From NCBI GenBank assembly GCA_963737265.1, contig CAVTRY010000011.1:1335271-1399270 (forward strand): 64,000 bases of DNA, written 5' to 3'. Every line of letters starts with the position of its first letter. The stretch's first letter is position 1. Below are positions 1-19,106 of this stretch, piece by piece. A program made the translations under genes and the position numbers. The notes beneath the pieces were generated by a model. The model did no database searches. It saw only the letters and a program-made list of their open reading frames with translations, and was not told the DNA's origin. The DNA comes from an uncultured delta proteobacterium (GTDB taxonomy: Bacteria > Myxococcota_A > Polyangia > Fen-1088).

Positions 1-2274
1 GGTCGGGGTTGGACAACAGAATAGAACCAAGTCATCCATGTCGTTGGCTAAATCGTTGTGAAAGTACTTGCTAAAGGTGATGGTGATACGGTGTCGAATC
101 TGGTTGATCTTCGCCCGTTCGAACGGTTCGACCTCAATCTTCTCGAAAACGTGCCTCTTCATCACGTGCATGTAGTCGACGGCCACGGCGAGCCTGGGCT
201 TGTCGCGCTGGGCGCTCGACGGCACCACCTCGATGTTGGTGACGTGGCCCTCGGCAGACACGCGGGCGATGGTTCCGGACGGACGGTCGCTGCCCCACTC
301 TGCGAACTCGTGGCTGAGATTCAGACGAGGGAGGGGGCCGGCGCAATCCGAGACGATGATGGGCGTGCGGCCTTTGATCTTGGACGCCGCGTCGGCGACC
401 ACGCCGCGGACGAGACGCAGGGCGTGGCCTTCGGTCGGGTACTGGTGGCCGGTGGGCTGCCCGACGAAATACAGGCCCTTGCGATGCGAGTGACCGGTGA
501 TGACCAGGGCCAGATCCTTGCCCGCCGCAACCTGGTCGTAGAGCTCTTTTCGCCCTTTTTCGAAAGTACCCAAGTCGTAGTCCGAGTAGGGCTGGCCCTT
601 GCGTATCAGGTGCTGACCAAGAAGGTCGGTCTCGCCGTTGTCGACTTTTCCAGCGACGGGTTCGTCGCCGCAGGCGATGGTGTCCTTGTAGCTGACCAGC
701 GTGAAATGGGTCATGAGCACGATCTTCTTGGCGCCGATCGACTTGAGCAGAGTGAGCTGCTGGCTGGTCACCGACTCGTTTGCGCGGCCGAGGTGACCCA
801 AACCCTGCCCTCCCGACCTGACGGACGGTAGCCAGTTGATCCGCTGCTCGTCCTCGCCCCAGCCCAGCCCCACCAGTCTCTGCTTGGGCAGCTCGAAGCT
901 AAAATCGGAGAAAGGTGTGAACGCGGCATAAAACCATTCGAACGCGCTTTTCTTCATCAGCGGCAGGCTGCTGGTGTCCGCGTAGGATTCTCCGAAGCTC
1001 AAGATAGACTCGTAGAAGGTCAGGTTATGGTCGGCGGGAATGCCTTCGTTTGCTGCCTTGAGCTGGAGCGCGCGCGGCGAGATGCCGTAGATATGTCTGC
1101 CGCCATAGGCGTCGTGATTGCCCGCAATCGCGAACGCGGGCTTGGCGGTGCAGAAGTCCCGGATCAGCGTGTAGAAGGCGATGAGGTCGACATTCGCTTG
1201 GTAGTTCTGGCGGTAGTTGTCATCGACGTTCACGCGTTTCCACACCGCGGCCGCGCTCTTGGCGAGCTTTTCCTCTGTTTGCTCATCGGTTGGCAGGGGG
1301 GAGGCATTGTCGATGTGCTCGATCAAATCGCCCCCCACGAGCAAGACGTCCAGGTCGTCCCCTTTGCCCTTCATCTTAGCGAGGATCGATACAAGCGAGG
1401 AATCGAAGCAGCTCACCAACGTGCCGATGGCAGGCGACTCCGTGGTTCCGGACGGCGCATCGATCACACGCGCGGGGCTTCTGGCCAAGAGCTTCTGGCG
1501 GGCGTTGATGTGGATGTCCGAGACGTGGCCGTAGCTGACCTCGGACAGGGTCCCCCGTGGATACACATAGAGCGGGTGATAGGCCACGATGCGCTGGTCG
1601 AGGTCGACCCGCGAGTAATCCACACCCTCGCCGTCGAGCTCGAATTCGTGCGTGCCGAAGCCGCCGCTGCCTTGCAGGGCCGGGCCGTTCAGGCGCTTAA
1701 AAACCTTGCGTATCTGGAGGTCCTGATATTCGGAATTCCCTGAACCGTCGTCCGCGCCAGGGCTGCCCGCTCCCTGCGAAGCTGCCGCCAGGCAAGACTC
1801 GTGTACCTGGATGGCGTAGAAACCGTCCAGCTCCTTGGGCAGCCAGTTGGAAACCGTGTCGTGCAGGACGCCACGGAAGATTCCCTTGGTCTTGAGCTGG
1901 CCGACTGCATCGCGCTCCACCGGCTCGACCGCGATCTTGCCCGTGGGATCGTCGAACAAATCGTCGTCCGTCACGCGTTTCTTGGCATCGAGGCCGGGCG
2001 CGAATTTGAGGTGGCGGTTTACGTCGTCGATGGCGAGAGCGGGCGACTTGGGCGCGGCCACCAGGAGCTCGATCATGCCCTTGTTCTCGCCGCGCACGTG
2101 CAGGTTGGGCGTCAGCAGCGAGGGAAACAGCACCACTGCCGGAATGTTCGGTCGCGTGTCGATGGTGTTGAGGTGCTCGGGGGCGACCTGGAATTTGCCC
2201 TGCGACGGATCGGGTCGCGACACGAACGAGAAGGCTCGCCACACCAGGTTGTAGATATCGGGTTTACTGGCCAT
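1..2274 (-). CDS. Large calcineurin-like metallophosphoesterase (3' end runs off the window)
   Basis: Not in the ORF track because it has no stop inside the window. Manual translation from ATG 2274 (MASKPDIYNLVWRAF...) shows the motifs HVSDIH, VGGDLIEH, IAGNHD, LMTHF and ITGHSH in the canonical order. Confidence 0.85.
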   Translation of the reverse strand, partial: MASKPDIYNLVWRAFSFVSRPDPSQGKFQVAPEHLNTIDTRPNIPAVVLFPSLLTPNLHVRGENKGMIELLVAAPKSPALAIDDVNRHLKFAPGLDAKKRVTDDDLFDDPTGKIAVEPVERDAVGQLKTKGIFRGVLHDTVSNWLPKELDGFYAIQVHESCLAAASQGAGSPGADDGSGNSEYQDLQIRKVFKRLNGPALQGSGGFGTHEFELDGEGVDYSRVDLDQRIVAYHPLYVYPRGTLSEVSYGHVSDIHINARQKLLARSPARVIDAPSGTTESPAIGTLVSCFDSSLVSILAKMKGKGDDLDVLLVGGDLIEHIDNASPLPTDEQTEEKLAKSAAAVWKRVNVDDNYRQNYQANVDLIAFYTLIRDFCTAKPAFAIAGNHDAYGGRHIYGISPRALQLKAANEGIPADHNLTFYESILSFGESYADTSSLPLMKKSAFEWFYAAFTPFSDFSFELPKQRLVGLGWGEDEQRINWLPSVRSGGQGLGHLGRANESVTSQQLTLLKSIGAKKIVLMTHFTLVSYKDTIACGDEPVAGKVDNGETDLLGQHLIRKGQPYSDYDLGTFEKGRKELYDQVAAGKDLALVITGHSHRKGLYFVGQPTGHQYPTEGHALRLVRGVVADAASKIKGRTPIIVSDCAGPLPRLNLSHEFAEWGSDRPSGTIARVSAEGHVTNIEVVPSSAQRDKPRLAVAVDYMHVMKRHVFEKIEVEPFERAKINQIRHRITITFSKYFHNDLANDMDDLVLFCCPTPT

Positions 2275-2283
2275 GTGTTTTTC

Positions 2284-2454
2284 CTAGCGGGTGGGGAAGC
2301 GGGCGCCCGGGCCATAGCTTAGCCCATCGGCTCGCACGACAAGGTCAGGGGCATAAGAAACTCGTCTGGCTTCGGCCAAGAAGACCGGGTCGATTAGCAG
2401 CCGCTGCTCTTCGTCGGTGAGGGGTGGTCGGGCGGAGGGATTAGGGGGCGCCAT
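2284..2454 (-). CDS. Small hypothetical protein (56 aa)
   Basis: MAPPNPSARPPLTDEEQRLLIDPVFLAEARR..., preceded by an AGGAG RBS; fills the gap between co-oriented genes. Confidence 0.5.
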   Translation of the reverse strand: MAPPNPSARPPLTDEEQRLLIDPVFLAEARRVSYAPDLVVRADGLSYGPGARFPTR

Positions 2455-2487
2455 GGGTTCTCCTGCGGGCGGTTCGGCCGTGCCGGG

Positions 2488-3219
2488 TTACCTGCCGTGG
2501 GCCGCGTGGAGTGCGGCGAGGAAGTCGTCATCGACCACGTCTTGGTCATCCAGCAGCTTGACCCAGCGGAAATGCGCGATGGCGGTGTGGGTGGCATCGT
2601 CGGCGTTTCCGTCGATCGGGCCCGTGTAGAAGCCGAGGTTCTGCAGGCGGGCTTGGATTCCCGAGGTGGTGTCGGACGGATCCAGTCCGCCCACGGCGAA
2701 ATCGTAGGCAGCAAAGGGCTGGTCGGCGGCGCTCCCCGCGCGCGAGAGCTCGACGTGGACCTTGCTGGTATCGGGTGGCAAGTCGATTTCCAGTTTTCCG
2801 GTCGAAGGTAGCGTGCCCTCCACGGCGCCACCGGTGTCAGGGGTTGCCTTGAAGGTGACCGGGTTCTCCTCGCTGCACTTGACTCCGGCGAAGCGCACGC
2901 GCAGCACCTCGGCCGCGCCCTGCACGACGTATTCAGCCGCGCCACCCGGGACCTCCGCCTCGCGCGCGAGCTTGCTCGGGATGGCGACCTTGTCGCCCGG
3001 CAAGAGGATGTGGGCGGTTCCGCGCAACTTGCGCAGGTCTTCGTTCTTCGCAAAATCCCAAATGGTCTGCCAACGAATGAAGCCATGCGCCCGAGCGATC
3101 GTGGGCAACCGGTCGCCTTGCTCGACCGTGTACTGCGACGCCTCGCTACGCTCGTCCTCGGCCAGATCGAGCGCGCCATCCCCGTCCCAGTCGGCGCCAT
3201 CGAGGTCGGGGAAGGTCAC
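2488..3219 (-). CDS. LysM and peptidoglycan-binding domain protein
   Basis: YTVEQGDRLPTIARAHGF...W (LysM-like); C-terminal GIQARLQNLGFYTGPIDG (PG_binding_1-like). Confidence 0.75.
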   Translation of the reverse strand: MTFPDLDGADWDGDGALDLAEDERSEASQYTVEQGDRLPTIARAHGFIRWQTIWDFAKNEDLRKLRGTAHILLPGDKVAIPSKLAREAEVPGGAAEYVVQGAAEVLRVRFAGVKCSEENPVTFKATPDTGGAVEGTLPSTGKLEIDLPPDTSKVHVELSRAGSAADQPFAAYDFAVGGLDPSDTTSGIQARLQNLGFYTGPIDGNADDATHTAIAHFRWVKLLDDQDVVDDDFLAALHAAHGR

Positions 3220-3386
3220 CGTGAAGACGCCCGGTGAAGAGCTCGTCGCCCGAACAGCGCGTGGAGGGGACTGAGAGCCTCGTATTCACCCTCGCGACAC
3301 AGCCGACTGGCATCGAGCCTACCGACCAAGATGACCTTGTTCTCGAGTTGCCAAAAAGGCGAGATGCCAAGCGAGGGGCCAAACAT
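3216..3386 (-). CDS. 56-aa ORF sharing its first 38 codons with the N-terminus of the OmpA-family gene (small gene or deletion remnant)
   Basis: MFGPSLGISPFWQLENKVILVGRLDASRLCREGEYEAL; AAAGGA RBS; its TGA overlaps the GTG of the LysM gene (GTGA). Confidence 0.5.
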   Translation of the reverse strand: MFGPSLGISPFWQLENKVILVGRLDASRLCREGEYEALSPLHALFGRRALHRASSR

Positions 3387-3931
3387 GTGTGTCCTTTCAC
3401 CTGCGCCGTCCGAGCTGGTGACCATAGTGAAGGTCGGCAACCGGCGAGAAGTCTACCACTGAACCACCCGCTGTCTGCCGAACGCCCCGAGGGCGTTCTT
3501 GCGCAAATCCTAGACCGCGGCGAGATGTCCGCTTGGCGGGAGCTGTACCGCCTTGCCGGTGCAGACCCGGATCTGCGTGCGCGAATCGCCCGGGTGGTGG
3601 CGAAAGTGCCATTGCTCATGCCGAGGTTTTGGTCTGCGGCCCTGAAGAGTCTTGGCGAGCCGGTCGACCTCGGCATGGATCTGCCGCGAGCCGATCTCGG
3701 GCTTTGATCTACTACCTCCGGGCCGTCGCCCCAAAAGGCCAGGGGGTTAGGGAAGAACTAGGCGCGGCCAGGCTGGACCAAAAAACAACTTCGTATAGCA
3801 TGGCGCCATGGATTTGATGTTTGGCCCCTCGCTTGGCATCTCGCCTTTTTGGCAGCTCGAAAACAAGGTCATCTTGGTTGGCAGGCTCGATGCCAGTCGG
3901 CTATGTCGCGACGGCGAATACGAGGCTCTCA
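3272..3931. repeat. 115-bp inverted repeat (3272-3386 and 3817-3931)
   Basis: Manual alignment gives 7 mismatches, all at third codon positions. Confidence 0.9.
3445..3707 (+). pseudogene. Remnant of a small helical protein gene
   Basis: Protein-like stretch VLAQILDRGEMSAWRELYRLA...PRFWSAALKSLGEPVD with no convincing start; lies between the inverted repeats. Confidence 0.35.
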
Positions 3932-6141
3932 ATCTCCTCCAGGCGCTGTGGGACTTTCGCCGCCTGTGGCCGAGGCCGCCCTGGCGCATGCGGCGCTTCG
4001 CCGCCGACGCCCGGCTGTCGAGATTCCCGCTGTCGTCGCTCGACGATCGCAAAGTGGACGAGCTGATTGAAAGCGCCATCCGGCTCGGCGATTTGGTCGC
4101 CATCAGGAAGGTCGACCCGGCCGTGCTTGCGGCGCGGCCCGTGGATCCAGCCGTGGCGAAGCTGCGCCTGATTCGCGAGATCGAAGCCAAGACCGGCGGG
4201 AAGATGACCGAGTCGGGCCGTCACTACCGGCTGCTGCGCGACATCGACTTCGAAAAGTTCCCCGAGCGCAACTACTACTATGTGGTCCGCCAGGACGAGG
4301 CCAAGCAAGTCCTGGACGCCCTGGCCAAAGGGACCGGCACGTCCGGCGAGCTGGCAGCACTTTTCGCCAAGGCGCGCGACCAAATCACCCGCGACTGGCG
4401 TCGGCCCTTTTCATCGCCCGACGGTCTCATCCTTCTTCGCCGCGCGCCGGTCGAGCGCGCGCCAGCGAAGGATACCGGACCCGCCATCACGCCGTCGCAG
4501 ATGAAGGCGCTGCTCGATGCCGAAAAGCCGGTCACGTTCTTTGCCCGTTTCGTCGACGAGCACGGCAAGGGGCTGTCCGGTTTTACCGGCACGCTGGCGC
4601 ACGGCTCGGATCCCGATAGCGACTTGGCGTTTCCCGGCAGCGGATTCGCCAAGGTCACCCTCAAGGGCAAAGCGCAGGCGTGGCTCACCCTGTCGGACGA
4701 TGCGACCCAGGACTTGGTCGATGCCTTGAAAGCCCGCTGGAAGGAAATTCGCGGCAAGGTGGACAAGGCGTGGAAAGCGAAGGAAGAAGCGCTGGTCGAA
4801 GTGTCGTTCGAGAAGGGCAAGCTGCCCGAACTGCAACTGGAAGCCGAGAAGAAGCACACCTTCATGCTCCGGCCCCCCGTGGCGTTGGCGCGCATGCACG
4901 GCATGTACTTCGATGCCAACAAATGCTTCCTGCTGCCCACGGCGATTGCCAGCCTTAAGCGTCTGGTCCAAATCTACGAGCTGCACCTCGATTCGGAGTT
5001 GCTGATCGTCGGCCACACCGACACGGCGGGCTCCGAGGCTTTCAACCTGGATTTGTCCGCCGATCGGGCCGAGGCGATGCGGGCATACCTGCGCGACGAC
5101 GCCGACACCTGGCTCGCCTGGTGGAACGAAGGCGTCAGGAAGAGCAAACGCTGGGGCGAGCACGAGGATCTCCAGATGATCGACGCCCTGGTGCCCGACG
5201 ACCGATTCGGCGACGGCAGTCACGTCAAAGCTTACCAGAACTGGCACAACGGCGAGGCGCCCGACGCGCGCCAAGAAGACCAGGCACGCGGCCAGCCCGA
5301 CGGATGGGAAGAGCTGAAAGTCGACGGTATCCTGGGACCGAAAACGCGCCGGCAACTGATCCTCGATTACATGAATCTGGCCGGCACGTCGCTGGAAGAC
5401 GACGTGCGCGTAGTCACCTACGGTTGCGGGGAATACTTTCCGCTTGAAAGCGAGGAAGGCGAGGTCGATCAAAAGGCCGAGGACAATGAAGAGGTGCAAT
5501 TCGACCGGCGCGTGGAAGTGTTCTTCTTCGCCAAACCGTTCGGCATCCTTCCGCCCGTGCCTGGGGTGGCCGACGGCGTGTCGTCGAAGACAGCGACCAA
5601 GGCAGCCAAGGGCGACAAGCTGTATCCCGAGTGGCGGCTGCGCGCATCCCGTTTCCATGCCGTCGAGACCGAGGCCGATGGTTTTCGGTTTCGCTTGTGC
5701 GACAGCGACCTTGCGCCCTATGCCAACCGACCGTTTGCCTTGTGCCTGGAAGACTATCCCGAGCTTCGCGGTACTACCGACGACGGCGGCTTCGTCATTG
5801 TCGACTCGCCGCCGGCGGGTGCGCAAGGCTACGTCGAGGTGTGGCCCGACGACGAGCTTCCCGAGGAAACCGTTCGCTGGGAGCTCGGCATCGACGCCAT
5901 GATTTCGCCCGCAACGCCGCTTGGCGCATCAACTCGACTGTTCAATCTGGACTACTTCGCCGGCGAGCCGAGCGACGAAATGACGGACGAGCTGCAGGAC
6001 GCCATCAGTTACTTCCAGGGCGACACCGCCGGGCTGGAAATTACGGGCGAGCTGGACGACGACACTTGCGCAGGGTTGCGCAACCTCCACGAGTGCGAGC
6101 CACTGGCCGCTTCCCCTGGCTCCGAGGAGCCGACCGGATGA
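3808..6141 (+). CDS. OmpA-family protein with peptidoglycan-binding domains
   Basis: LIVGHTDTAGSEAFNLDLSADRAEAMRAYL and DRRVEVFFF (OmpA C-like); LKVDGILGPKTR and RLFNLDYF...AISYFQ...LEITGELDDDT (PG-binding). Confidence 0.85.
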   Translation: MDLMFGPSLGISPFWQLENKVILVGRLDASRLCRDGEYEALNLLQALWDFRRLWPRPPWRMRRFAADARLSRFPLSSLDDRKVDELIESAIRLGDLVAIRKVDPAVLAARPVDPAVAKLRLIREIEAKTGGKMTESGRHYRLLRDIDFEKFPERNYYYVVRQDEAKQVLDALAKGTGTSGELAALFAKARDQITRDWRRPFSSPDGLILLRRAPVERAPAKDTGPAITPSQMKALLDAEKPVTFFARFVDEHGKGLSGFTGTLAHGSDPDSDLAFPGSGFAKVTLKGKAQAWLTLSDDATQDLVDALKARWKEIRGKVDKAWKAKEEALVEVSFEKGKLPELQLEAEKKHTFMLRPPVALARMHGMYFDANKCFLLPTAIASLKRLVQIYELHLDSELLIVGHTDTAGSEAFNLDLSADRAEAMRAYLRDDADTWLAWWNEGVRKSKRWGEHEDLQMIDALVPDDRFGDGSHVKAYQNWHNGEAPDARQEDQARGQPDGWEELKVDGILGPKTRRQLILDYMNLAGTSLEDDVRVVTYGCGEYFPLESEEGEVDQKAEDNEEVQFDRRVEVFFFAKPFGILPPVPGVADGVSSKTATKAAKGDKLYPEWRLRASRFHAVETEADGFRFRLCDSDLAPYANRPFALCLEDYPELRGTTDDGGFVIVDSPPAGAQGYVEVWPDDELPEETVRWELGIDAMISPATPLGASTRLFNLDYFAGEPSDEMTDELQDAISYFQGDTAGLEITGELDDDTCAGLRNLHECEPLAASPGSEEPTG

Positions 6142-7010
6142 CGAGGCGCCGCGGTATCTTCCTGGTTGCCTGGGTCGTTGGGGGATGGCTGGCGGCACTG
6201 GTCGCGGTGCCGCATCTGCGCTGGTGGATCGAGGAGCACAACCATCGCACGACAGGACCGTCGTACGGGCTGGCCAACGACGCGGCGGCGTCCCTCGCGG
6301 CGGCTCTCGATCAACCAGCGCGCGTTGCCGAGCTGGTGGCAGTTCCGGAATCCGAGCCCACGCCCGCGACCTCGTGCGAGCTCACCTGGACCGATCGAGA
6401 AAAGACCTATGTCTACGCGCAGCGGGCCTCGCGGGCAGCGCCCGAGACCGCGTGGCGGGCGGTCACGGTCGCCGGCAAGGCGATCCTCGGCCGCTATGTC
6501 GCGGACTTGTGGGCGGGCGACTGCAGGGAGAAGGGCTCCGACTACAAAAGGGACTGCACCGTGGTGGAGCGCGCGCGACTGGTCGAGCGGCGGGAGATCC
6601 CCGTGGCACCTTCACCCGACAGGGCGACACCGCTGCTGCCCGGTGAGTGCACGCTCGGAACCTTCGCGGGCAAGCCAGGCGTCGTCGGCCGGTACAAGGT
6701 GACCCTGCCCGCGGAGCGCGAGATCACGGTGCGCGCATTCGTGATCCCGGCCACCGCGTTCCTGGCGTACCGGCTGTCGCTGCGCGGACAGGATGCCCCA
6801 CACGTCGACAAGGAGAGCACCATGTTTCGCTCGCTCGGCCAGGGCGAATACGACCTGGAGGTCACCCTGCTACCCGCAGTCGGCGCCGCCGACCTGCCCG
6901 GCGAGTACAGCCTGCAAGTCCACTGGGGCCGCGCTGTCGGCCCTCGCTGTCCCATTCCGAGCTTCGACGAGAGCAACTGCTACGGCGTTCCGGGCGGGAA
7001 GCAGCCATGA
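6138..7010 (+). CDS. Membrane-anchored Cys-containing hypothetical protein A (candidate immunity protein)
   Basis: ATGA overlap with the upstream stop; N-terminal hydrophobic helix GIFLVAWVVGGWLAALVAV; paralogous to 7007-7888 and near-identical to 11155-12048. Confidence 0.75.
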   Translation: MTRRRGIFLVAWVVGGWLAALVAVPHLRWWIEEHNHRTTGPSYGLANDAAASLAAALDQPARVAELVAVPESEPTPATSCELTWTDREKTYVYAQRASRAAPETAWRAVTVAGKAILGRYVADLWAGDCREKGSDYKRDCTVVERARLVERREIPVAPSPDRATPLLPGECTLGTFAGKPGVVGRYKVTLPAEREITVRAFVIPATAFLAYRLSLRGQDAPHVDKESTMFRSLGQGEYDLEVTLLPAVGAADLPGEYSLQVHWGRAVGPRCPIPSFDESNCYGVPGGKQP

Positions 7011-7056
7011 AGGCTAACGGATCGCCCATCGAACACCTCGCGCGGGCTGTCGGAGC
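6161..7056 (+). repeat. ~0.9 kb direct repeat, copy 1 (copy 2 at 11196-12094)
   Basis: Near-identical sequence; differences seen are a V/I codon, a 3-bp insertion (PAV vs PAAV) and a synonymous change near the left edge. Confidence 0.95.
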
Positions 7057-7888
7057 CGTGGGCTGGGCGTGGGCGACGATCCTGCTCCTGGGGACGGTGC
7101 TGACCCTGGAACGCGACCGTGGGGCGCCGTATCCGGCGGGCCAGTTGGGAGAGGCGTTTGCGAGCACAAAGCCAGTGGACCGTGAGATTTTCGGTCCAGT
7201 AGCCGATCGCATTCACGGGCGAAGTGTCTGCGACAAGATGTGGTTCGATGAAGATGCGGTGCCGATTCGCGGCATCGGACCCATGAACGGCTCAACGGCA
7301 CCTGCATGGCTCACCCTGACTGTTGCCGGCCAGGTCTTTGTCGGCAGAGTCACCGTAGATCTGTGGAACGGAGTCGGGGCAGGAACCGGTGGCCTGGAAT
7401 CCTCGACCAATTTCATCGTCGCCACCAACCTTCGCTTCGTGGAGCGCGTGCCGCCACCTCGCCCAGGCCCGCCCGGTTGGCGGGTCATTCGGCCAGGCGA
7501 GTGCGCCCTCGGCAGCACGGAGCCTCAGGATGCTTCGGGTGTCGTCGGGCGGTTCTTAATCGACCTGCCGGCAGAACGATTCGTCAACATTGGATTCATG
7601 CCAGAAGCTGAAGGGGATTACACACCGATGGACTGGAAGCTCACTTTCGATGGGCAGGATGTCCGAACGGTCCAAGAGGACGAGTACAAAGAAGGCCGAT
7701 ATCGGCCGGAACGATCGGGACGATATGAGCTTACAGTCCGTCGAACCGACGGACCAGACGCCGGCCAGATACCCGGAAGGCCACGGCAACACTACAGTGT
7801 CCAGGTGGCATGGGGTGCGTCGATAACAGGATCGTGTTCTCCGCCTGATAGCTATGGCAACTGTTTCATGGAGGTCCATCGTGAGTGA
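7007..7888 (+). CDS. Membrane-anchored Cys-containing hypothetical protein B (paralog of A)
   Basis: ATGA overlap; hydrophobic AVGWAWATILLLGTVL; shares TVAG..GR..DLW, PGEC.LG, GVVGR..LPAER and YS.QV.WG..C..P..NC with protein A. Confidence 0.75.
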   Translation: MKANGSPIEHLARAVGAVGWAWATILLLGTVLTLERDRGAPYPAGQLGEAFASTKPVDREIFGPVADRIHGRSVCDKMWFDEDAVPIRGIGPMNGSTAPAWLTLTVAGQVFVGRVTVDLWNGVGAGTGGLESSTNFIVATNLRFVERVPPPRPGPPGWRVIRPGECALGSTEPQDASGVVGRFLIDLPAERFVNIGFMPEAEGDYTPMDWKLTFDGQDVRTVQEDEYKEGRYRPERSGRYELTVRRTDGPDAGQIPGRPRQHYSVQVAWGASITGSCSPPDSYGNCFMEVHRE

Positions 7889-8220
7889 TTCACCGGGAAG
7901 ATTTCGGCGCAAAGACGTGAAGGCGACAGGGGCCTACCAGAAAGCGGATACCAATGAGAAGCGTAATTACCCGCTGCCAAACTCGATCGAATACCAAGTT
8001 AGGCCCGAGATCGCCAAGACCCTGCGGGCCCCGTCCGTGCATAGCGTCGATCCTCATGGTACTTCGACGCTTGTTCAGAAAGAAGTGGCCACCCTCATCT
8101 ACATGGACGTCGGTCGCTGGAGCGGCAGTGCACCAACGGAGCATGATACACAGTCGCATTGGGGCAAGCATCGCGACTTCGGAATCGTCTGCGGTCGCCT
8201 GGCCACACTCTGCACCTATA
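7881..8220 (+). CDS. 5' part of a gene that runs into the low-complexity stretch (probably the N-terminus of the 9623-11086 phosphoesterase)
   Basis: GGAGG RBS at 7871 and GTG at 7881; open, normal-looking frame until the A/T runs begin. Confidence 0.55.
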
Positions 8221-9620
<1,400 letters not shown>

Positions 9621-9622
9621 GG

Positions 9623-11086
9623 ATGATCGTGAACGATGCCGTCGAGGAATCAATCAAGTCCTCTCCCGAATTCGAGAAGGTTCGTCCCCTTCTCAAGATC
9701 CTCTCCTCCAATCCCAAGCTTGGCTGGGTTCAGGTAACCAAGGCGGCGCTGGGCCGCAAGTTGAACAACGAGATCCCGAAGGAGGACAGGATCTACGTGA
9801 TTCTCGGGGATCTCCATGCCCCGGTCATGACCGACGGCAGGCGCACGTACTCGGACGAGCCCCAGCAGAAGTCGCTGGCCGACGCGATGGGCGTCCAATC
9901 AATTCCTGGCGGCTACGCCAGTGCCGCTCTTGCATCGGGGGTGCTCAAGCGCGGACCCCTGCACGGATGGCGCGGGCGCTACGATCCGGGCGTTCTGGCC
10001 AGCGAGGTCTTGCCTGACGTCGCCCGCGACTTGGGCGAGAGCGCGAAGGCGATCGTCGAGGCCAATCCCATCGCGCTCTATGCTGGGGAGACCCTGGCCG
10101 TGGCGGAGGCTCCGGGGACCGCGACGGCGCTCATTACCGTGGGCGGCGCCGCCTCGGCGGTTCTGATCGAGCTTGCCGCCAAGACCCGCCTGCGCGAATG
10201 GCCCGACACGGAGGGTGGCCATGCCGAGAACGTCCGCGATTGGTTCGCCCGATACCACGGCACCCACGACAAGAAAGGCGCCGACATCTTCGAGGACGCG
10301 GGGACCGACTTGTTGCTCTGGCTCGCGCTGCTCAAGGACTACAACCAGGCAAAAGAGGGAAACAACCTGCCGGTGCGGCTGATGCAACTCGGGGATCTCT
10401 TCGATTTCTGGATCGGGCTCAAGTGCCCTTTCAGCCTGACCCACGGGGCCAGGAGCTTCCCGAACAAGAAAGCGGCCTTGGAGTTCGTGCAGTACTGGAT
10501 GGACGAAACCCTGCGCTCTCCATCCATTAACTACCTGTGGAACTTCGACAAGCACGCGGCGACCAGGCCCGACCTCAAGACCGTGTTTCTGTACGGAAAC
10601 CACGACACGTACATGGGCAGCCTTCTTCCGGCAATCGTAAAAGAGCGTTTCGAAGACGATCCCGGTCTGGTCGCGCAGCACGGCCACCAGGAAGACACCT
10701 TCAACAAAGAGGAGAACGCGGCGAGGGGTTACCTGCTCACCCAGGCTGCCTTTTCCGACGACTACATTCGCGGCATCGAAGATCCCATGTCCGCCCTGGG
10801 TCCCACGCTCTTCGGCGGAAGCTGGACGCGCCTGGATCTGGCCGAGATGGCACTTCGGACCTGCGTCTTCGATAGGGTCAACCTAGGAAAGAAGCCGGCC
10901 ATGACCTTCGTCATGGGCCACACCCACGAGCCGGTGCTGCAGGTGATCCACGTCGTCGCAGTCCACCAGGACGAGTCCCGAGCGACATCGAAGCCCCCAG
11001 GCGCGCCCACACCCAAGTTGCAAGCCCCGTCCGCGGCCGAGTCCCAATCTCGAAATACGTCCACCAAGACTGGGTATAGGGGATAA
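9623..11086 (+). CDS. Calcineurin-like metallophosphoesterase (LpxH-like motif spacing); true start probably upstream
   Basis: VILGDLH, QLGDLFDFW, LYGNHD, AQHGH and VMGHTH motifs. Confidence 0.85.
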   Translation: MIVNDAVEESIKSSPEFEKVRPLLKILSSNPKLGWVQVTKAALGRKLNNEIPKEDRIYVILGDLHAPVMTDGRRTYSDEPQQKSLADAMGVQSIPGGYASAALASGVLKRGPLHGWRGRYDPGVLASEVLPDVARDLGESAKAIVEANPIALYAGETLAVAEAPGTATALITVGGAASAVLIELAAKTRLREWPDTEGGHAENVRDWFARYHGTHDKKGADIFEDAGTDLLLWLALLKDYNQAKEGNNLPVRLMQLGDLFDFWIGLKCPFSLTHGARSFPNKKAALEFVQYWMDETLRSPSINYLWNFDKHAATRPDLKTVFLYGNHDTYMGSLLPAIVKERFEDDPGLVAQHGHQEDTFNKEENAARGYLLTQAAFSDDYIRGIEDPMSALGPTLFGGSWTRLDLAEMALRTCVFDRVNLGKKPAMTFVMGHTHEPVLQVIHVVAVHQDESRATSKPPGAPTPKLQAPSAAESQSRNTSTKTGYRG

Positions 11087-11154
11087 TTCCGCCGTGTAGG
11101 CGGATGTAGTTTACATGGTCTCTGTTCATCGGCGTTTTTTTCGAGCGAGGGAAA

Positions 11155-12048
11155 ATGGCGCTTGAAATGACTATCCACAGGCGCCGGGGCCTCTCCCTGG
11201 TTGCTTGGGTCGTTGGGGGATGGCTGGCGGCACTGGTCGCGGTGCCGCATCTGCGCTGGTGGATCGAGGAGCACAACCATCGCACGACAGGACCGTCGTA
11301 CGGGCTGGCCAACGACGCGGCGGCGTCCCTCGCGGCGGCTCTCGATCAACCAGCGCGCGTTGCCGAGCTGGTGGCAGTTCCGGAATCCGAGCCCACGCCC
11401 GCGACCTCGTGCGAGCTCACCTGGACCGATCGAGAAAAGACCTATGTCTACGCGCAGCGGGCCTCGCGGGCAGCGCCCGAGACCGCGTGGCGGGCGGTCA
11501 CGGTCGCCGGCAAGGCGATCCTCGGCCGCTATGTCGCGGACTTGTGGGCGGGCGACTGCAGGGAGAAGGGCTCCGACTACAAAAGGGACTGCACCGTGGT
11601 GGAGCGCGCGCGACTGGTCGAGCGGCGGGAGATCCCCGTGGCACCTTCACCCGACAGGGCGACACCGCTGCTGCCCGGTGAGTGCACGCTCGGAACCTTC
11701 GCGGGCAAGCCAGGCATCGTCGGCCGGTACAAGGTGACCCTGCCCGCGGAGCGCGAGATCACGGTGCGCGCATTCGTGATCCCGGCCACCGCGTTCCTGG
11801 CGTACCGGCTGTCGCTGCGCGGACAGGATGCCCCACACGTCGACAAGGAGAGCACCATGTTTCGCTCGCTCGGCCAGGGCGAATACGACCTGGAGGTCAC
11901 CCTGCTACCCGCAGCAGTCGGCGCCGCCGACCTGCCCGGCGAGTACAGCCTGCAAGTCCACTGGGGCCGCGCTGTCGGCCCTCGCTGTCCCATTCCGAGC
12001 TTCGACGAGAGCAACTGCTACGGCGTTCCGGGCGGGAAGCAGCCATGA
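11155..12048 (+). CDS. Membrane-anchored hypothetical protein A' (second copy of A)
   Basis: Nearly identical to 6138-7010 apart from the first residues. Confidence 0.8.
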   Translation: MALEMTIHRRRGLSLVAWVVGGWLAALVAVPHLRWWIEEHNHRTTGPSYGLANDAAASLAAALDQPARVAELVAVPESEPTPATSCELTWTDREKTYVYAQRASRAAPETAWRAVTVAGKAILGRYVADLWAGDCREKGSDYKRDCTVVERARLVERREIPVAPSPDRATPLLPGECTLGTFAGKPGIVGRYKVTLPAEREITVRAFVIPATAFLAYRLSLRGQDAPHVDKESTMFRSLGQGEYDLEVTLLPAAVGAADLPGEYSLQVHWGRAVGPRCPIPSFDESNCYGVPGGKQP

Positions 12049-12094
12049 AGGCTAACGGATCGCCCATCGAACACCTCGCGCGGGCTGTCGGAGC
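12045..12094 (+). pseudogene. Truncated 5' stub of protein B'
   Basis: MKANGSPIEHLARAVGA, identical to the start of 7007-7888, then identity ends abruptly. Confidence 0.8.
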
Positions 12095-13353
12095 ACGCGT
12101 CGGCACCTATCAGCCTTACCGGCAATGGGGTCAAGGTAGCGCAAGTCGAACCAACCGCGCCATTGCCTGCTGCCAGCGTGGTACCGGAGATTTCGCCCTT
12201 CACCGAACCCCAACCGGGGACAGGCTGCCCGGATGACTACAGTCATATGGCAAGGGTTGCCAGTGTTATGGGATCGAATGAATATACATTTAAAGGCGTG
12301 GCTCCCAACATAGCCCGCTATATTGCCGGCATGTGCAAGTCCAGCTCGTCATATCTCGAGGCTCAGGCGACTGCCGGCAAGACATGGGGTGCGGTCGCGA
12401 TAAATAACAGTTGGGGAATAGATACAACAGCAGTCGGATCCAGGCCGACGAACGACGACAAGTTCTTCGACTCCCTGGTCTTTAGCAATCGGATAAACAT
12501 CGTGTTTTCTGCTGGCAATTCGACGGACCAGCAGCCTGACTGTTGGAAACAGTCCCCTGGCATGGTTTCAACTGGAATGGTCATGTCGCCGGGATTGGGA
12601 TTCAATGTGATAACAGTGGGCGGCGCCGACGGGCAGATCGGGTCGACCTATCCCGACATCTGGCCCTGTTCCGCGTGGAAGAACCCATTGTCAACCAACG
12701 GTGACAGAAACAAGCCCGAGGTCATCGCGCCCGCTGTGGGCCTCAACACGTTAGAAGTGTGCAGTGGTAAGACTACTTTCGACAGCGCCAACTGCAACCT
12801 GACGGGCGAAGTCGATGGGACGAGTCTGTCTGCGCCCTTTGTTACTGGTACGGCGGCTCTATTGCTTCAGTCAGCACCAGTCATGTGGCCCGAAACCGTG
12901 AAGGCTATCATGATGGCTGCGGCGCAGCCGCTGCCGACTTCAGACCGAGACCACTATGGCGCGGGGCTTGTCAACATCGGGGTTGCGGGCGATATCGTAA
13001 GGGGCGTCAACGGAAACTGGAGGGGAGATACGCCGCCGCAGTGCTCTGGCACGTGGCCGTACACCTGGCCGATGTATCTCATCGCTGGGAAACAGACGCG
13101 ATTGGCTATTGCATGGACGCAAGACCCCAACTACAGCCAATACGCCAATCAGCCCCAGGCAGATATGGATCTTATGATCAAGGATCCCCAGGGCAACGTG
13201 TATGTCCTATCTAATAGCTACGACAACAATTATGAATATGGTGATTTTGTGCCCTCTCAGACAGGTATGTACACGATTATGGCCACGAAGTGGCGTTGCG
13301 ATTCCACCTTTGCTTCCAATCGCATTGGTTTGGCCTGGCACCAGGCGCCGTGA
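12095..13353 (+). pseudogene. 5'-truncated S8 (subtilisin-like) serine peptidase
   Basis: In-frame LTGNGVKVAQVE upstream of the called start, SHMARVASVMG (His), VFSAGN, KPEVIAP, DGTSLSAPFVTG (Ser); no signal peptide or prodomain; begins at the duplication breakpoint. Confidence 0.75.
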
Positions 13354-13751
13354 TGTGTTTTCGCTGTCCCATTCTTCTTGCTCTGTTCGGGCTTGCTAGC
13401 TGCAGCAGCAAGCCCGTTGACTGCTACAACGTAGCGCCCACCGATTGTGGGAAGTACTCACAGTGCCGTTCTATTGTTGCCGGCTGGCTGGACGATCAGT
13501 GCGTAGAAGAGATCGACCCTGTTGCCTGTTGGCCTGCAGACGTCCCCGGCTGTCAGCTGACATTTGGTTTGAGAGATCCGGCCGGGCACTGTTGGGGGAT
13601 GGCGGACTGCTTCGTTCCGCAAGGGTGGCAGGACGACGATGGAACCTGCTACAAGTCTGGGGAAGCGAACTACAACGCGTGCTATCCGCAAGATGCTGGC
13701 ACCGTGGGCGACAGTGGAACGGGAAATGCGGGCGATACCGGAGGGGACTAA
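13353..13751 (+). CDS. Cys-rich lipoprotein
   Basis: TGATG overlap; signal peptide with lipobox LLALFGLAS-C; many Cys; Gly/Asp/Thr tail. Confidence 0.7.
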   Translation: MCFRCPILLALFGLASCSSKPVDCYNVAPTDCGKYSQCRSIVAGWLDDQCVEEIDPVACWPADVPGCQLTFGLRDPAGHCWGMADCFVPQGWQDDDGTCYKSGEANYNACYPQDAGTVGDSGTGNAGDTGGD

Positions 13752-13819
13752 GCGACAATAGTATCGTATCACGCGGACCCGAAGGAAATGCCTCCCGAGG
13801 GTCCGCGTTGTGTCGGTGC

Positions 13820-13912
13820 GTACGGGAACTTGGAAAATTCAGGTCATAAAATGCCGTTGCGACTCCACCCTCAGCTCCAATCGCATCGGTCTGGCATGGG
13901 CATTGGACGCGA
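13820..13912 (+). pseudogene. Relic C-terminus of a second S8 peptidase
   Basis: TGTWKIQVIKCRCDSTLSSNRIGLAW matches TGMYTIMATKWRCDSTFASNRIGLAW at the end of 12095-13353. Confidence 0.65.
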
Positions 13913-13963
13913 ATCCCTGTGTTCGCCGCCGATGGCTCGGCGAACGACTCCACCTGCCGGCAG

Positions 13964-14383
13964 CTAGTCAACCATGCGAAAACCGGCTGAAGCGAAGTGG
14001 TGGTCGAAGGCGAACGCCAGTCGGATCCTTTCGCGCGCCATGAGCACGAAGCTGGTGGCGTCCACGGCGGATAGCTTGTGGAGCTCGGGTTTGGCGAAGT
14101 AGACCCAAGCACGTTCGAGGTCGTGGCTCCCGCACTCCAGCAGACGAAATCGCGGCAGACTAGCCAAGGAGTTCTTCCAGGCGAGAGCAACGTCTTGGGT
14201 CGCGTTGCGATCGAGGAAGGTGAAGGTTTCTAGTACGACCGGAATCGAGGTCGCCAGTCGCGACCCCTTGTCGAGCAATCCCTCCCATGCGGCCCTGGCT
14301 CGATCGTGCAAGGGATCGCGGGTCAGCGCCAGCGCGATCCAGGCACCTGTATCCACGAAGACCAGATCGTTGCTTCGAGTCAC
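13964..14383 (-). CDS. vapC: PIN-domain toxin (VapC family)
   Basis: VFVDTGAWIAL, VVLETF, LSAVDATSF, AFAFDHHF; GTG start overlaps the antitoxin stop. Confidence 0.9.
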   Translation of the reverse strand: MTRSNDLVFVDTGAWIALALTRDPLHDRARAAWEGLLDKGSRLATSIPVVLETFTFLDRNATQDVALAWKNSLASLPRFRLLECGSHDLERAWVYFAKPELHKLSAVDATSFVLMARERIRLAFAFDHHFASAGFRMVD

Positions 14384-14598
14384 GGCTGGTCGTAAATGGC
14401 GTCGTGTTCGGCGGAGGTGGCGCGGGGCTGCCCGTCCCACAGACCGACCGGGCCCTTCGTCGACGGCCGAAGCCAGACCTTTCGGATCGCCTCGCGGATC
14501 AACCCGGCCACGGGCCGACTGGTCCGTTTTGCAATTTGGTGCAGGGCTGCCAAATCTTCATCCTGCAAATAGACCTGAGTCTTCGTCATGGGTGTCAT
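14380..14598 (-). CDS. Ribbon-helix-helix (CopG-like) antitoxin
   Basis: MTKTQVYL...VAGLIREAI; directly upstream of the PIN gene. Confidence 0.85.
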   Translation of the reverse strand: MTPMTKTQVYLQDEDLAALHQIAKRTSRPVAGLIREAIRKVWLRPSTKGPVGLWDGQPRATSAEHDAIYDQP

Positions 14599-14694: not shown

Positions 14695-15652
14695 TGGAGC
14701 TGCAAGTCGCGCGGATTTTGCCCCTCGTGTACGGGTAGAAGAATGGCACAGACCGCGACGAATTGGCTCGAACACGTGCTGCCAGCAACTCCCCTGCGAC
14801 AGTTCGTGGTGACATTTCCCTTCGAGCTTCGCCAGCGTCTGGCCTACGATGGCAAGACCCTGCGCGCGGTCGGCAGGATCTTCATGGACTCGGTTCTTGG
14901 ATGGTATCGACGCCGAATGCGCGACGAAGGCATTCGCGACGGCCGCAGCGGTGCGGTCATGGTCGCGCAGCGGAACAACGCCGACGTGAAGCTTAACCCG
15001 CACCTGCACGCCATTTTCGTCGATGGTGTCTTTGCGACCGTGCCCGACGGCAAGCCGGTCTTCCACGCCCTGCCACGCCTCTCGACCGAGGAGGTCGGCG
15101 ACCTCTTGCAGGTGGTGCGTACCCGCGTCCTCGCACACCTTGTCCGCCGTGGCATCATCGAGCCTGGCTCCGACCTGACCGTGCTCGACGACGGCTTCGC
15201 CGAGCGCGAGCCGGCCCTGGCCCAGTTGGCCGCTGCCGCCGTGTCTGGCCTGCCGCCTGCTGGCCCCGAGTTGCGCCGCCGCCCCGAACCCGTGATGCTG
15301 CGCGGCCACCCCGGCGTCGAAGTGACAGCGCCCCTTTCCGTCACCGAGTTCGGGTTCTCCCTGCATGCTGCCACCCGCGCTGGCGCCGAAGACGCTCGTG
15401 GCCGCGAAGCCCTGTGCAAGTACGTGCTTCGCCCGCCCCTGGCCCAAGAGCGCCTGAGCCTCCTGCCAGACGGTCTGGTCCGCATCACGCTCCGCAAGCC
15501 TTTCCGAGACGGCACCTACGCCGTCGACATGGATCCGCTCTCGTTGCTTTGCCGTCTTGCCACCACGATTCCTCCGCCAAGGTTGCATGGGGTGCGCTAC
15601 TCCGGTGTTCTCGCCCCCGCCGCTAAGCTCCGCCCTCTGATCGTGCCGCTAC
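14695..15652 (+). mobile_element. IS91-like (rolling-circle HUH/Y) transposase fragment, truncated at both ends
   Basis: SCKSRGFCPSC, NPHLHAIFVDG (HUH), LCKYVLRPPL; cut at 15652 by an IS21 element. Confidence 0.85.
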
Positions 15653-15688
15653 TGCTGGACGTCAACTACATTCACCCGGTGACGTCAA

Positions 15689-16537
15689 TTACATCGCCCC
15701 ATTGTTGTCGGGGGTAGTTGTCGTTGGTTGATCGGTAGTTGTCGTAGTTGTCGCTGGGGTGGTGACGCCTCTCTTTCGTGCTTCTTCGCTGCGGTAGCTG
15801 GGGCCGGTCATCTCAAGGATGACCGCGTGGTGGACCAGTCGGTCGATGGCGGCGGCGGTGGTCATGGGATCCTTGAAAATGCGGATCCAATCGCTGAAGA
15901 CCAGGTTGCTGGTGATGAGGACGCTCTTGCGTTCGTACCGCTCGGCCAGGAAGGTGAAAAGGACCTCCATTTCATCGCGGCTCTGCTGGACGTAGCCGAT
16001 GTCGTCGAGGATCACGGCGTGATAGATGTCGAGCGCGGCCAGTTCTCGTTCCAGGCGAAGGTCGCGCTTGGCGGCCAGCAGCCTCTGGACAAGCGCGAAG
16101 GTCGGCGTGAAGAGGACCCGGTAGCCGCGCCGGATGAGTTCGTGGCCGATGGCAGCCACAACGTGACTTTTGCCTCGGCCGGGCAGTCCGAAGACGAGCA
16201 GGTTCTCCCCACGTTCGACAAAGCCACCCTCACACAGGCTCGCCATCTGCTTCATCACCTTGGGTGACAGCCGACCACGTTCCAGGGTGGCCAGGGTTTT
16301 CTCCGTGGGAAGGTCCGAATCGCGAAGCGCGCGATCGATGCGACGGGTTCGGCGCTCTTCGATTTCCAGTTCGGCCAGGTGCTGGAGGTATTGGCTGAAG
16401 GTCCACCCCTCGCGGCTGGCCTTGATCGCGATCTCCTCGGCGTGCCGGGTGAAGGCAGGCAGCTTGAGCGCGCGCAGAAGCACCAGCAGAGCGTCGAGCG
16501 CGCTCGGCTTGACCGTGTCTACGGAGACGTTGGTCAT
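15689..16537 (-). CDS. istB: IS21 ATP-binding helper protein
   Basis: Walker A GLPGRGKS, Walker B VILDDIGY, ITSNL, AAIDRLVHH. Confidence 0.93.
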   Translation of the reverse strand: MTNVSVDTVKPSALDALLVLLRALKLPAFTRHAEEIAIKASREGWTFSQYLQHLAELEIEERRTRRIDRALRDSDLPTEKTLATLERGRLSPKVMKQMASLCEGGFVERGENLLVFGLPGRGKSHVVAAIGHELIRRGYRVLFTPTFALVQRLLAAKRDLRLERELAALDIYHAVILDDIGYVQQSRDEMEVLFTFLAERYERKSVLITSNLVFSDWIRIFKDPMTTAAAIDRLVHHAVILEMTGPSYRSEEARKRGVTTPATTTTTTDQPTTTTPDNNGAM

Positions 16538-18033: not shown

Positions 18034-18145
18034 AGGTGCCTCCTGCCCGCTTGCGGGCTTGGAGGTCTACCTCACGGTCACCGTCGCGCCTCAAAGCGGG
18101 GCGACGTAGCTGTCGTCTTTGGGGAGATGTAATTGTCGCTCGGCA

Positions 18146-19000
18146 GCGAACCTCGGTTCGTCCGTGCCCAACATCGCGTGTCTCGTGAAAATCCACGTCC
18201 AATCCCGTCGGGTCGCGACGACAATGCGCGAAGATTGTCGTCACTTCAGCGCTGAGCGTGGGTTGGTTCTCCTTCACCGCGAGCAGGTAATCCGCGTCGG
18301 CGTCCTGGATATCTGCGGTGATCTGCTTCTGGCAGCCCATCGCATCGATAGTTACTAGACAGCCCTTGATCTTCAGGAGCTTGAGCAACCGCGGAATGGC
18401 AGTGATCTCGTTGGATTTCTCCTCTGTCTTGACCTGCCCAAGAACCACGTGGTTGTTGGTGGCCCAGGCACTAACCATGTGGACGAAAGCGTGGCTGCCG
18501 GCCTCTTGGAAGGATCGTCGCAGCGTCTTGCCGTCGATGGCCACGACCTCGCCTTTCGTGAGTCGCGCCACGCTCAAGATCCACTGCCGGAACCTCTCAG
18601 CCAGGGCATCTGGATTCAGGGCTGCAAACACCCTCCCGATGGTGTCGTGTGTGGGAATCCCGCCGCGCAGACCGATAGACGTTCGTAACCAGGCTTCTCT
18701 TGCCCGCCCATAGGTCTCGATAGCACAGAAGGAGTCAGCACCACAGACCACGGCACACAACGATAGCATCAGGATGTCCGTCAGCGCGTGGTGCCGCGTC
18801 CGCTCCACCCGCGGATCCGGCACCGACGCGAAGTACTCCAGGATCGATGCCGCCAGCTCTTCCTTTTCTCGTTCCGCCACGGTTGTTCGCTTCATGACTT
18901 ACGAACAAGCCACGATATCGCCCTTCAATCAAAAAACGTTCCTCTCTGGTGCGCCGGCTATACCACGAAGATCGTTCGGGATTTAGATGCGATGACCCTG
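18146..19000 (-). mobile_element. ISAs1-family element, 3'-truncated (transposase starts at 18895)
   Basis: VPDPRV, PTHDTIGRVF, VAIDGKTLR, KSNEITAIP, TIDAMGCQ, GHGRTEVR; the left end reads CAGGG on the minus strand at 19000. Confidence 0.9.
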
Positions 19001-19106
19001 GGCTCCCTCCCCGGGCTTCTTGGGCTCCCTCCCCGGGCTGGCAACCCCGTCCAGGCCCTTCTCACCCGGTTTTCGAACCCTGGCCCCCGCTTGTTTCCCT
19101 TACGCG
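19001..19106 (+). repeat. IS91-like 3' (putative oriIS) end, inverted copy of about 19874-19980
   Basis: Near-identical inverted copy ending ...GCTTGTTTCCCTTACGCGT; contains the tandem unit GGCTCCCTCCCCGGGCT. Confidence 0.8.

Follow-up and report, generated by a model that had tools for sequence, protein, structure and literature searches.

What kind of system is encoded by two divergent gene arms that open with the same codons and carry peptidoglycan (PG)-binding proteins, large phosphoesterases, and duplicated membrane-anchored partners? The question is raised by the first 12,094 nucleotides (nt) of a 64,000-nt stretch of DNA from an uncultured delta proteobacterium (the window), which forms the final 64 kb of contig C11 in a 6.55-Mb, 25-contig bin from a soil metagenome (G000, with further contigs C12, C13, C22, and C23); G001, G002, G006, and G010 are among the congeneric genomes, other G-numbers denote further genomes, and L-numbers denote loci in relatives or metagenomes. 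The locus is probably an orphan island of two head-to-head type VI secretion system (T6SS) cargo-effector operons, partly degraded and with no vgrG of its own. An earlier, sequence-only reading had described an antagonism or delivery module with phosphoesterases as effectors; gene neighborhoods in relatives partly support that description, and the delivery route, which it had left open, can be extended to a T6SS. Genes for VgrG or PAAR proteins were found beside relatives of both enzymes and of the N-terminal module shared by the two arms. T6SS delivery appears the most likely route, since both enzyme families and the N-terminal module are linked in relatives to vgrG, PAAR, adaptor, or core genes, the genome encodes a T6SS, and a polymorphic pattern is present.

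The left enzyme (PE-left) is a calcineurin-like metallophosphoesterase encoded on the reverse strand at 1..2274, where residues 1 to 758 of 895 amino acids (aa) fall within the window and the remainder runs onward to G000:C11:1334857. It matched Pfam Metallophos (PF00149) above the cut-off (E 1.8e-5, 25.7 bits, cut-off 21.5), as did its paralogs and relatives, which agrees with the earlier call of a phosphoesterase of more than 750 aa. The motifs DxH, GDxxD/H, GNHD, H, and GHxH are conserved, and the metal-site residues D253, H255, D314, N386, H387, H525, H592, and H594 are invariant across 41 sequences. An AlphaFold2 (AF2) model of the 888-aa paralog on C12 (predicted local distance difference test, pLDDT, 85.9; predicted template modeling score, pTM, 0.90) gave SMPDL3A/B, acid sphingomyelinase, Lmo2642, and Rv0805 as its best Foldseek matches (E 2e-6 to 1e-3) and also resembled purple acid phosphatases and GpdQ; a PDB profile search with PE-left returned no match. 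The family comprises 189 relatives, with 62 loci in species genomes of many phyla, and in some distant members a LysM domain (PF01476) is fused to the enzyme.

Polymorphic toxin loci such as Rhs and contact-dependent inhibition (CDI) systems combine a fixed N-terminus and a variable C-terminus with cognate neighbor genes and orphan cassettes. The three full PE-left copies in the bin are 100% identical over the first ~200 aa; beyond that point, the window copy is only 30 to 68% identical to the C12 and C23 copies, and divergence between the C12 and C23 copies is confined to near the C-terminus. Each copy is followed within ~20 bp by a gene for a 402- to 405-aa signal-peptide protein, 42 to 45% identical to the one that accompanies the window enzyme, whose gene (C11:1333627-1334844) lies 427 bp outside the window. 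Downstream on C23 are 5'-truncated orphan PE-left cassettes, each with its own signal-peptide paralog, and in 4 further myxobacterial loci PE-left is likewise followed by a member of the ~405-aa family. Judged from these comparisons, the pattern is characteristic of polymorphic toxins that have a candidate periplasmic immunity protein, and the ~405-aa signal-peptide protein is the immunity candidate of the left enzyme. Fixed N-terminus, variable C-terminus, linked variable gene, and orphan cassettes were found together for the left enzyme only. The earlier suggestion that the right-arm paralogs A and B might serve the left enzyme as well is not supported. An idea that the pentapeptide-repeat protein of the left arm is the PE-left immunity protein (a DNA mimic against a nuclease) was dropped because each enzyme variant has its own divergent signal-peptide neighbor and pentapeptide proteins are known T6SS accessories. 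The likeness to Rhs and CDI toxins (Zhang et al. 2012, PMC3482391) lies in the identical N-termini and divergent C-termini, the per-variant neighbor gene, and the 5'-truncated cassettes. PE-left differs in having no Rhs, PAAR, or filamentous repeat region, and the catalytic domain of a single enzyme family lies within its variable part in place of unrelated folds, with the exception of one deaminase chimera. This chimera, the metagenome protein P0054, combines the first three PE-left motifs with a cytidine-deaminase/MafB19-like domain in place of the C-terminal half of the enzyme. Its switch point lies near the residue where the C23 orphan cassettes begin.

Neighborhoods of PE-left were counted over 58 loci with an open reading frame (ORF) of at least 450 aa and 9-kb flanks. 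A pentapeptide-repeat gene lies within 300 bp of PE-left in 38 of them (29 downstream, 7 upstream, and 2 abutting), and a VgrG-profile match lies within 9 kb in 19. Gene orders checked with Pfam include VgrG, DUF4123, PE-left relative, and pentapeptide protein in Collimonas; VgrG, DcrB, and PAAR, then further on the enzyme and a pentapeptide protein; VgrG, and further on a Tle1-like protein, PE-left relative, pentapeptide protein, TssE, and TssF in Azonexus; enzyme, pentapeptide protein, and ClpV; and VgrG, a PG_binding_1 protein, and enzyme. These arrangements resemble VgrG-linked cargo modules (vgrG, adaptor, effector, immunity) in that VgrG, DUF4123, enzyme, and next gene follow one another or the enzyme comes after DcrB and PAAR; they differ in that the enzymes are metallophosphoesterases and that the carrier module matches no known adaptor family. 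At the gammaproteobacterial locus L078 (12705-13616), a PAP2-family membrane phosphatase gene follows the enzyme and pentapeptide genes, a possible hint at a lipid-phosphate substrate.

The right enzyme (PE-right) is encoded on the forward strand in two pieces: XN, the N-terminal ~125 to 130 aa of the gene (7854..c.8255, a 123-aa open frame, delimited by comparison with G001), and a 487-aa catalytic part (9623..11086), recognized from its motifs and from weak LpxH-like signals. In G001, XN and the catalytic part are one protein of 705 to 723 aa, within an operon ordered carrier, A, B, enzyme. The translation holds the motifs GDLHAP, GDLFD, GNHD, HGH, and GHTHE, and GD..D, GNHD, HGH, and GH.HE are invariant columns in the family. 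The second phosphoesterase described earlier carries the five motifs, but it is the larger, C-terminal part of a split gene and has no Metallophos match: at a limit as lax as E<=1, PF00149 matched 0 of the 9 family members. A precomputed Pfam domain was present in 0 of 52 relatives, and a PDB profile search gave no match. Alignment of the PE-right and PE-left families with hhalign brought the motifs into register weakly (probability 22%, E 1e-3). The NCBIfam LpxH models TIGR01854 and NF003743 stayed far under their cut-offs, with best E values of 0.025 (in 3 of 9 members) and 0.032 (in 2 of 9), and gave no match in the genome-wide scan; among the relatives, five bear the source name LpxH and one "predicted phosphodiesterase".

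In relatives, PE-right lies near A/B-like and secretion genes, a co-occurrence whose absence would have spoken against the earlier reading. Of 54 metagenome loci, 17 hold an A/B-like gene, immediately upstream of the enzyme, 19 encode a PG-binding protein, and 11 encode VgrG, with the order VgrG, A/B-like, enzyme in L129, L130, L137, L139, L143, and L146. All 9 VgrG candidates beside PE-right relatives were confirmed by Pfam, and in G009 two PE-right family members flank a VgrG gene at less than 3 kb on both sides.

Between carrier and enzyme on the right arm lie A (6138..7010, forward strand, 290 aa) and B (7007..7888, forward strand, 293 aa, overlapping the start of the next gene), identified by translation and family comparison as candidate immunity genes. 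They are paralogs, as had been noted, at ~30% identity; A has an N-terminal membrane anchor and belongs to no known family. A-like and B-like proteins carry N-terminal hydrophobic anchors or lipoboxes together with invariant cysteines, and two such paralogs accompany the enzyme in both G000 and G001. A direct repeat (6144-7056 and 11179-12094, 98 to 100% identical) begins a tandem second unit and accounts for the earlier observation of A again followed by a stub of B: A' (11155..12048, forward strand) is 98% identical to A by repeat comparison, and B' (12045..12094, forward strand), placed by blastn, comprises the first ~17 codons of the second B. A PDB profile search for A/B found no match. 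Assignment of A/B to pre-peptidase C-terminal (PPC) domains, suggested by the sequence pattern, has no backing other than weak leads (PF04151 in 1 of 9 members at E 0.2, and protein-atlas feature matches of 0.87 to PPC clusters). Both A and B are intact in the window though the enzyme gene is broken, and it is plausible from their predicted topology that they are envelope-located immunity proteins.

The carrier that opens the right arm (3808..6141, forward strand, 777 aa) consists of an N-terminal module (N-module; residues 1 to ~240, 3808-4527), an OmpA-like domain, and a C-terminal PG_binding_1 domain, as assigned by Pfam and the N-module family. Both domains scored above their cut-offs (OmpA, 35.7 bits against 27.2; PG_binding_1, 27.9 bits against 23), in keeping with the OmpA/PG-binding protein read from the sequence. 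The 38 codons common to both arms are the start of the ~235-aa N-module, which has the invariant end DW..PDGL.LLR...P.TPS. The module occurs 11 times in the bin, at no fewer than 8 loci, and in all 12 congeneric genomes (1 to 10 matches each); it was found, weakly, in 1 of 12 genomes that belong to the same family but to other genera and in 0 of 16 from other families of the class. A HMMER profile recovered 434 cluster representatives. In 146 of the 150 that were listed, the module starts at residue 25 or earlier, and the proteins are 175 to 1037 aa long; among the 54 members of at least 420 aa, OmpA and/or PG_binding domains occur in 28 while 25 gave no Pfam match, and a few N-module proteins have an HExxH motif. 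An AF2 model of the module (pLDDT 83.7) resembled no solved structure in Foldseek at E<=1e-3, with a best VIA-align Z of 5.1, and searches for a Pfam family, a PDB sequence match, and a usable protein-atlas match were negative.

Its genomic company suggests a role at the VgrG spike. Of the 51 N-module matches in the 12 congeneric genomes, 4 are no more than 3.1 kb away from a Phage_GPD (VgrG) match (G010:C29, G002:C43, and both C33 and C42 of G006, in three genomes altogether), and in L035 and L045 a VgrG gene, confirmed by Pfam, directly adjoins the N-module gene. In G009 (C91), a PG-binding part 41% identical to the left PG-binding protein of the window is fused to the C-terminus of VgrG. 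Other N-module genes are followed by genes for Amidase_2, YkuD, or HExxH proteins or for an uncharacterized protein and an Imm72/Imm71 protein. The N-module may thus dock a PG-binding carrier onto VgrG. Two loci of G008 (L030, 10066-13399, and L031, 7666-11002) encode an N-module protein, a 470- to 498-aa toxin candidate, and an Imm72/Imm71 protein. An island at G000:C12:14976-19609 encodes a distant N-module protein (365 aa), a 123-aa protein, a 514-aa HExxH protein with a glycine-zipper tail, a DcrB/DUF1795 protein, and a 356-aa protein, and looks like another T6SS effector set.

The earlier view of the locus as intact is not supported, since breaks in both arms had been overlooked. On the left, C23 holds intact genes for a 531-aa carrier with N-module and PG-binding part (C23:255360-256955), a 368-aa pentapeptide-repeat protein (C23:254220-255326, Pentapeptide_4 E 9e-16), and an 876-aa enzyme. 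Relative to C23, the carrier gene in the window has a frameshifting 688-bp deletion that leaves, on the reverse strand, a C-terminal part with PG_binding_1/2 (2488..3285; PG_binding_1 E 1.6e-5, 25.4 bits, above cut-off) and, in another frame, a 5' stub with the first ~44 N-module residues, identified by translation (3216..3386). Because of this shift of frame, the 38 shared codons sit in the separate stub. Of the LysM/PG-binding protein proposed for this arm, the PG-binding part holds; a Pfam search for LysM (PF01476) gave no match at E<=0.01. The next gene has lost 936 bp in frame relative to C23, and the small ORF noted on this arm is therefore what is left of the 368-aa pentapeptide-repeat gene: a 56-aa remnant (2284..2454, reverse strand, in a short ORF at 2284-2487), defined by translation and by blastn break points against C23, that is devoid of pentapeptide repeats.

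On the right, the enzyme gene is interrupted at 8222..9620 by a block containing three poly-T runs (452, 198, and 143 nt), a C-free stretch of 200 nt, and an A/T-only stretch, the only such block in the 6.55-Mb assembly. The copy of the right arm on C12 (97 to 99% identical) carries at the same site a 1461-bp IS4-like insertion sequence (IS; DDE_Tnp_1; C12:270266-271726), which has 10 copies in the genome. After reduction of C to T and G to A, islands of the block are colinear with the C12 IS in the same orientation, and the C-free stretch aligns over 197 nt. The block is most likely a corrupted assembly rendering of the same IS, as this base-reduced alignment indicates; a natural AT-rich insert was dropped as an explanation because the block has no counterpart elsewhere in the genome and lines up with the C12 IS only once its bases have been reduced. 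Corruption precedes the poly-T, as a run of 14 A at 8222-8255 replaces CACA of the paralog, so that the last ~10 XN codons in the window are unreliable. Where read-derived sequence was compared (9170-14500), none was placed at 9170-9703, which is neutral on the garbled block.

The second unit ends abruptly at 12094, where the second B runs into a subtilase gene truncated at its 5' end (Peptidase_S8, E 6e-26; window 12101-14231) that is 99.95% identical, in reversed orientation, to C13:572129-574258. A contig of sequencing run X1 covers 10829-12486 with no mismatch, and the junction is thus taken to be real in the DNA, the run possibly being the bin's own source and not independent. From this near-identity, the subtilase stretch is read as a recent duplication or rearrangement that ended the effector array.

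The mirror-like appearance of the locus stems from an inverted repeat (3254..3949, with arms at 3254-3386 and 3817-3949) made up of the 5' ends of two N-module paralogs lying head to head. The arms are 133 nt long, 92% complementary, and 430 nt apart, and they encode the identical start of both arms, with 37 of 38 residues the same in translation, as the earlier observation of shared opening codons had it. Further copies of the repeat arm were found by blastn in C11, C12, C22, and C23, and a scan of 3300-3900 for promoter-like or terminator-like sites was negative. The head-to-head layout is no conserved feature: on C12, left-type and right-type operons lie 7 kb apart. A functional mirror image is not supported, since each operon type is found apart from the other in relatives.

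VgrG-linked T6SS cargo effectors commonly sit in orphan islands distant from the main cluster, and the bin, at 99.5% completeness and 7.6% contamination, does encode a T6SS. It has a VipB/TssC match of 450 bits, TssC lying at C11:975 kb, together with 2 PAAR matches and Phage_GPD matches in 5 places, of which 2 are halves of one split gene. Building on the observed gene content, breaks, families, T6SS synteny, and polymorphic pattern, we infer the following scheme of secretion, docking, toxicity, substrate, and immunity. Each operon type would pair a carrier with one or two partner genes and a large metallophosphoesterase that has no signal peptide and is the candidate toxin. The left type would consist of carrier, pentapeptide-repeat accessory, 895-aa enzyme, and ~405-aa signal-peptide immunity candidate; the right type would consist of carrier, the exported and membrane-anchored immunity candidates A and B, and an enzyme of ~710 aa. 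The carrier, likewise without a signal peptide, would dock on the VgrG spike through its ~235-aa N-module and bind PG with its C-terminus. The spike would deliver carrier and enzyme into the periplasm of a neighboring cell, where the PG-binding part would retain them at the cell wall and the enzyme would attack a component of the envelope, for example a lipid-linked wall precursor or the head group of a phospholipid, by hydrolyzing a pyrophosphate or phosphodiester bond. The exported partner proteins would protect sister cells. A stronger, joint version of this scheme is tentative, and we consider it distinctly less probable than the orphan-island reading itself: that the N-module is a new T6SS loading domain by which a PG-binding carrier is attached to the VgrG spike, that both phosphoesterase families form a new periplasm-acting toxin class with the pentapeptide-repeat, ~405-aa exported, and A/B proteins as dedicated accessory and immunity partners, and that this class cuts pyrophosphate or phosphodiester bonds in lipid-linked wall precursors or membrane lipids.

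Several observations weigh against an orphan T6SS effector island. None of the T6SS genes of the bin (TssC, VgrGs, and PAAR) lies near the window, and vgrG, hcp, and PAAR genes are absent from its annotated stretches, as had been noted for the locus before. None of the 11 N-module matches in the bin was recorded near a VgrG match, 47 of 51 N-module loci in the congeneric genomes are not beside vgrG, and the module has no sequence or fold match to the known T6SS adaptors DUF4123, DUF1795/DcrB, and DUF2169. PE-right is a candidate phosphoesterase, named so only for its motifs and for matches, all of them weak, to a profile and to LpxH models. A and B are located between VgrG and enzyme, the usual place of chaperones, and thus upstream rather than downstream of the enzyme. 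Near-identical copies on C11 and C12 may represent two strains rather than two loci, given the 7.6% contamination. Finally, all three right enzyme genes in the bin are split, by the IS and by a frameshift in the two C12 copies (C12a and C12b, respectively) and by the garbled IS in the window, and the left carrier and pentapeptide gene have both been lost to deletions; the window copy is therefore possibly nonfunctional.

Among other explanations, the one that survives best, though unlikely, is that the modules are accessory or structural T6SS parts by which the apparatus would cross the envelope of the producing cell or anchor in it, A/B and the pentapeptide protein then being assembly factors. 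Such a role would suit PG-binding domains fused to VgrG, the location of A/B between VgrG and enzyme, and, from the available text on these systems, the standing of pentapeptide proteins as assembly accessories. It fits poorly with the many divergent copies per genome, the identical N-termini joined to divergent C-termini, the paired divergent signal-peptide proteins, the orphan cassettes and the deaminase chimera P0054, and the patchy distribution, with PE-right matches in 2 of 3 other congeneric genomes that were sampled. Toxins are a better fit than core parts because of these divergent copies, paired partners, the chimera, and the patchy distribution. A slightly less probable alternative concerns the right arm alone, where A and B could be chaperones or adaptors of the enzyme and the true immunity gene would be elsewhere or absent. 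A/B-like genes do lie upstream of the enzyme and directly 3' of VgrG in 6 metagenome loci, and the two paralogs per enzyme are conserved in G000 and G001. Known T6SS chaperones, as far as the available sources describe them, are cytoplasmic, whereas the membrane anchors or lipoboxes and the invariant cysteines of A/B point to the periplasmic side and lead us to favor exported immunity proteins; moreover, A and B are intact where the enzyme is broken, as expected of retained immunity genes. Highly improbable, and disfavored, is the idea of housekeeping or stress envelope phosphatases with PG-binding partners, no secretion role, and duplications that are assembly artifacts, which could point to an annotated window part without a secretion gene, to the corruption at 8222-9620, and to the contamination but is countered by translations of enzymes and carriers in which the signal peptides of such phosphatases, a possibility raised earlier, were not seen, by repeated synteny with VgrG, PAAR, DUF4123, DcrB, and core T6SS genes in unrelated phyla, by the contig that bridges the 12094 junction, and by the contrast between the 12 congeneric genomes, all of which carry the N-module, and the 16 searched from other families of the class, none of which does.

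An orphan T6SS effector island invites comparison with systems already described. VgrG proteins with a C-terminal PG-binding extension are known, for example VgrG-3 of Vibrio cholerae. Similarly, 3 of the 9 VgrGs beside PE-right relatives end in PG_binding_1, and a VgrG of G009 has a PG-binding tail; the difference here is that the PG-binding part is mostly a separate protein behind an N-module and that the enzyme is encoded separately. Both enzymes share binuclear-metal phosphoesterase motifs with LpxH and sphingomyelinase-like phosphodiesterases, and the nearest solved folds act on lipid or nucleotide phosphodiesters, the similarity of PE-right to LpxH being weak and below any cut-off. Colicin M is a toxin that cleaves lipid II. 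TelC is another, according to the available part of PMC12419801; both have folds other than those of the enzymes here, whose exported immunity candidates point to a periplasmic target. Pentapeptide-repeat proteins such as TvpB are established T6SS accessories in the available text of PMC13373197, where Tvp class III complexes also hold DUF2169, DUF3540, and DUF4150/PAAR proteins; the TagAB proteins are of the same accessory kind (PMC8747328). The ~360- to 430-aa pentapeptide protein beside PE-left, often near VgrG, is alike; the systems differ in that Pfam reported no DUF2169, DUF3540, or DUF4150 among the scanned PE-left neighbors and that the window gene is a 56-aa stump. A metallophosphoesterase as a T6SS effector is predicted in one sentence for Neisseria in the available text of PMC12046857; beyond this prediction, no characterized metallophosphoesterase T6SS effector was found in the literature searched, which covered few subscription journals and was available in part.

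The locus thus presents two uncharacterized enzyme families, with partner families and a new N-terminal module, in what is probably an orphan T6SS effector island, genuine though decayed. For new antibacterial activities and targets, T6SS effectors are a leading source. If the proposed roles are correct, PE-left, with relatives in many phyla, would represent a widespread uncharacterized effector class, PE-right would represent another class, less common and accompanied by an exported partner family of its own, the N-module would seem to replace the covalent fusion of PG-binding parts to VgrG, and pentapeptide-repeat proteins would gain a defined cargo. The window copy itself is of lower value in this respect, being part of a decaying island, and the intact versions in relatives matter more.

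A PADLOC search matched no defense-system model; it gave weak MotB/ZorB-type matches on the OmpA domain only and no match to the enzymes, A, B, or the 56-aa stump. The bin is very rich in IS elements, and the stretch of the window at 14695-19107 is dense in multicopy mobile elements, with one in at least 5 copies at 14695-15652, a ~2.5-kb element in ~20 near-identical copies over several contigs at 15653-18146, and another in at least 10 copies at 18146-19000. A 158-aa ORF at 13964-14440 on the reverse strand has the look of a PIN-domain (VapC-type) toxin, as judged by eye alone.

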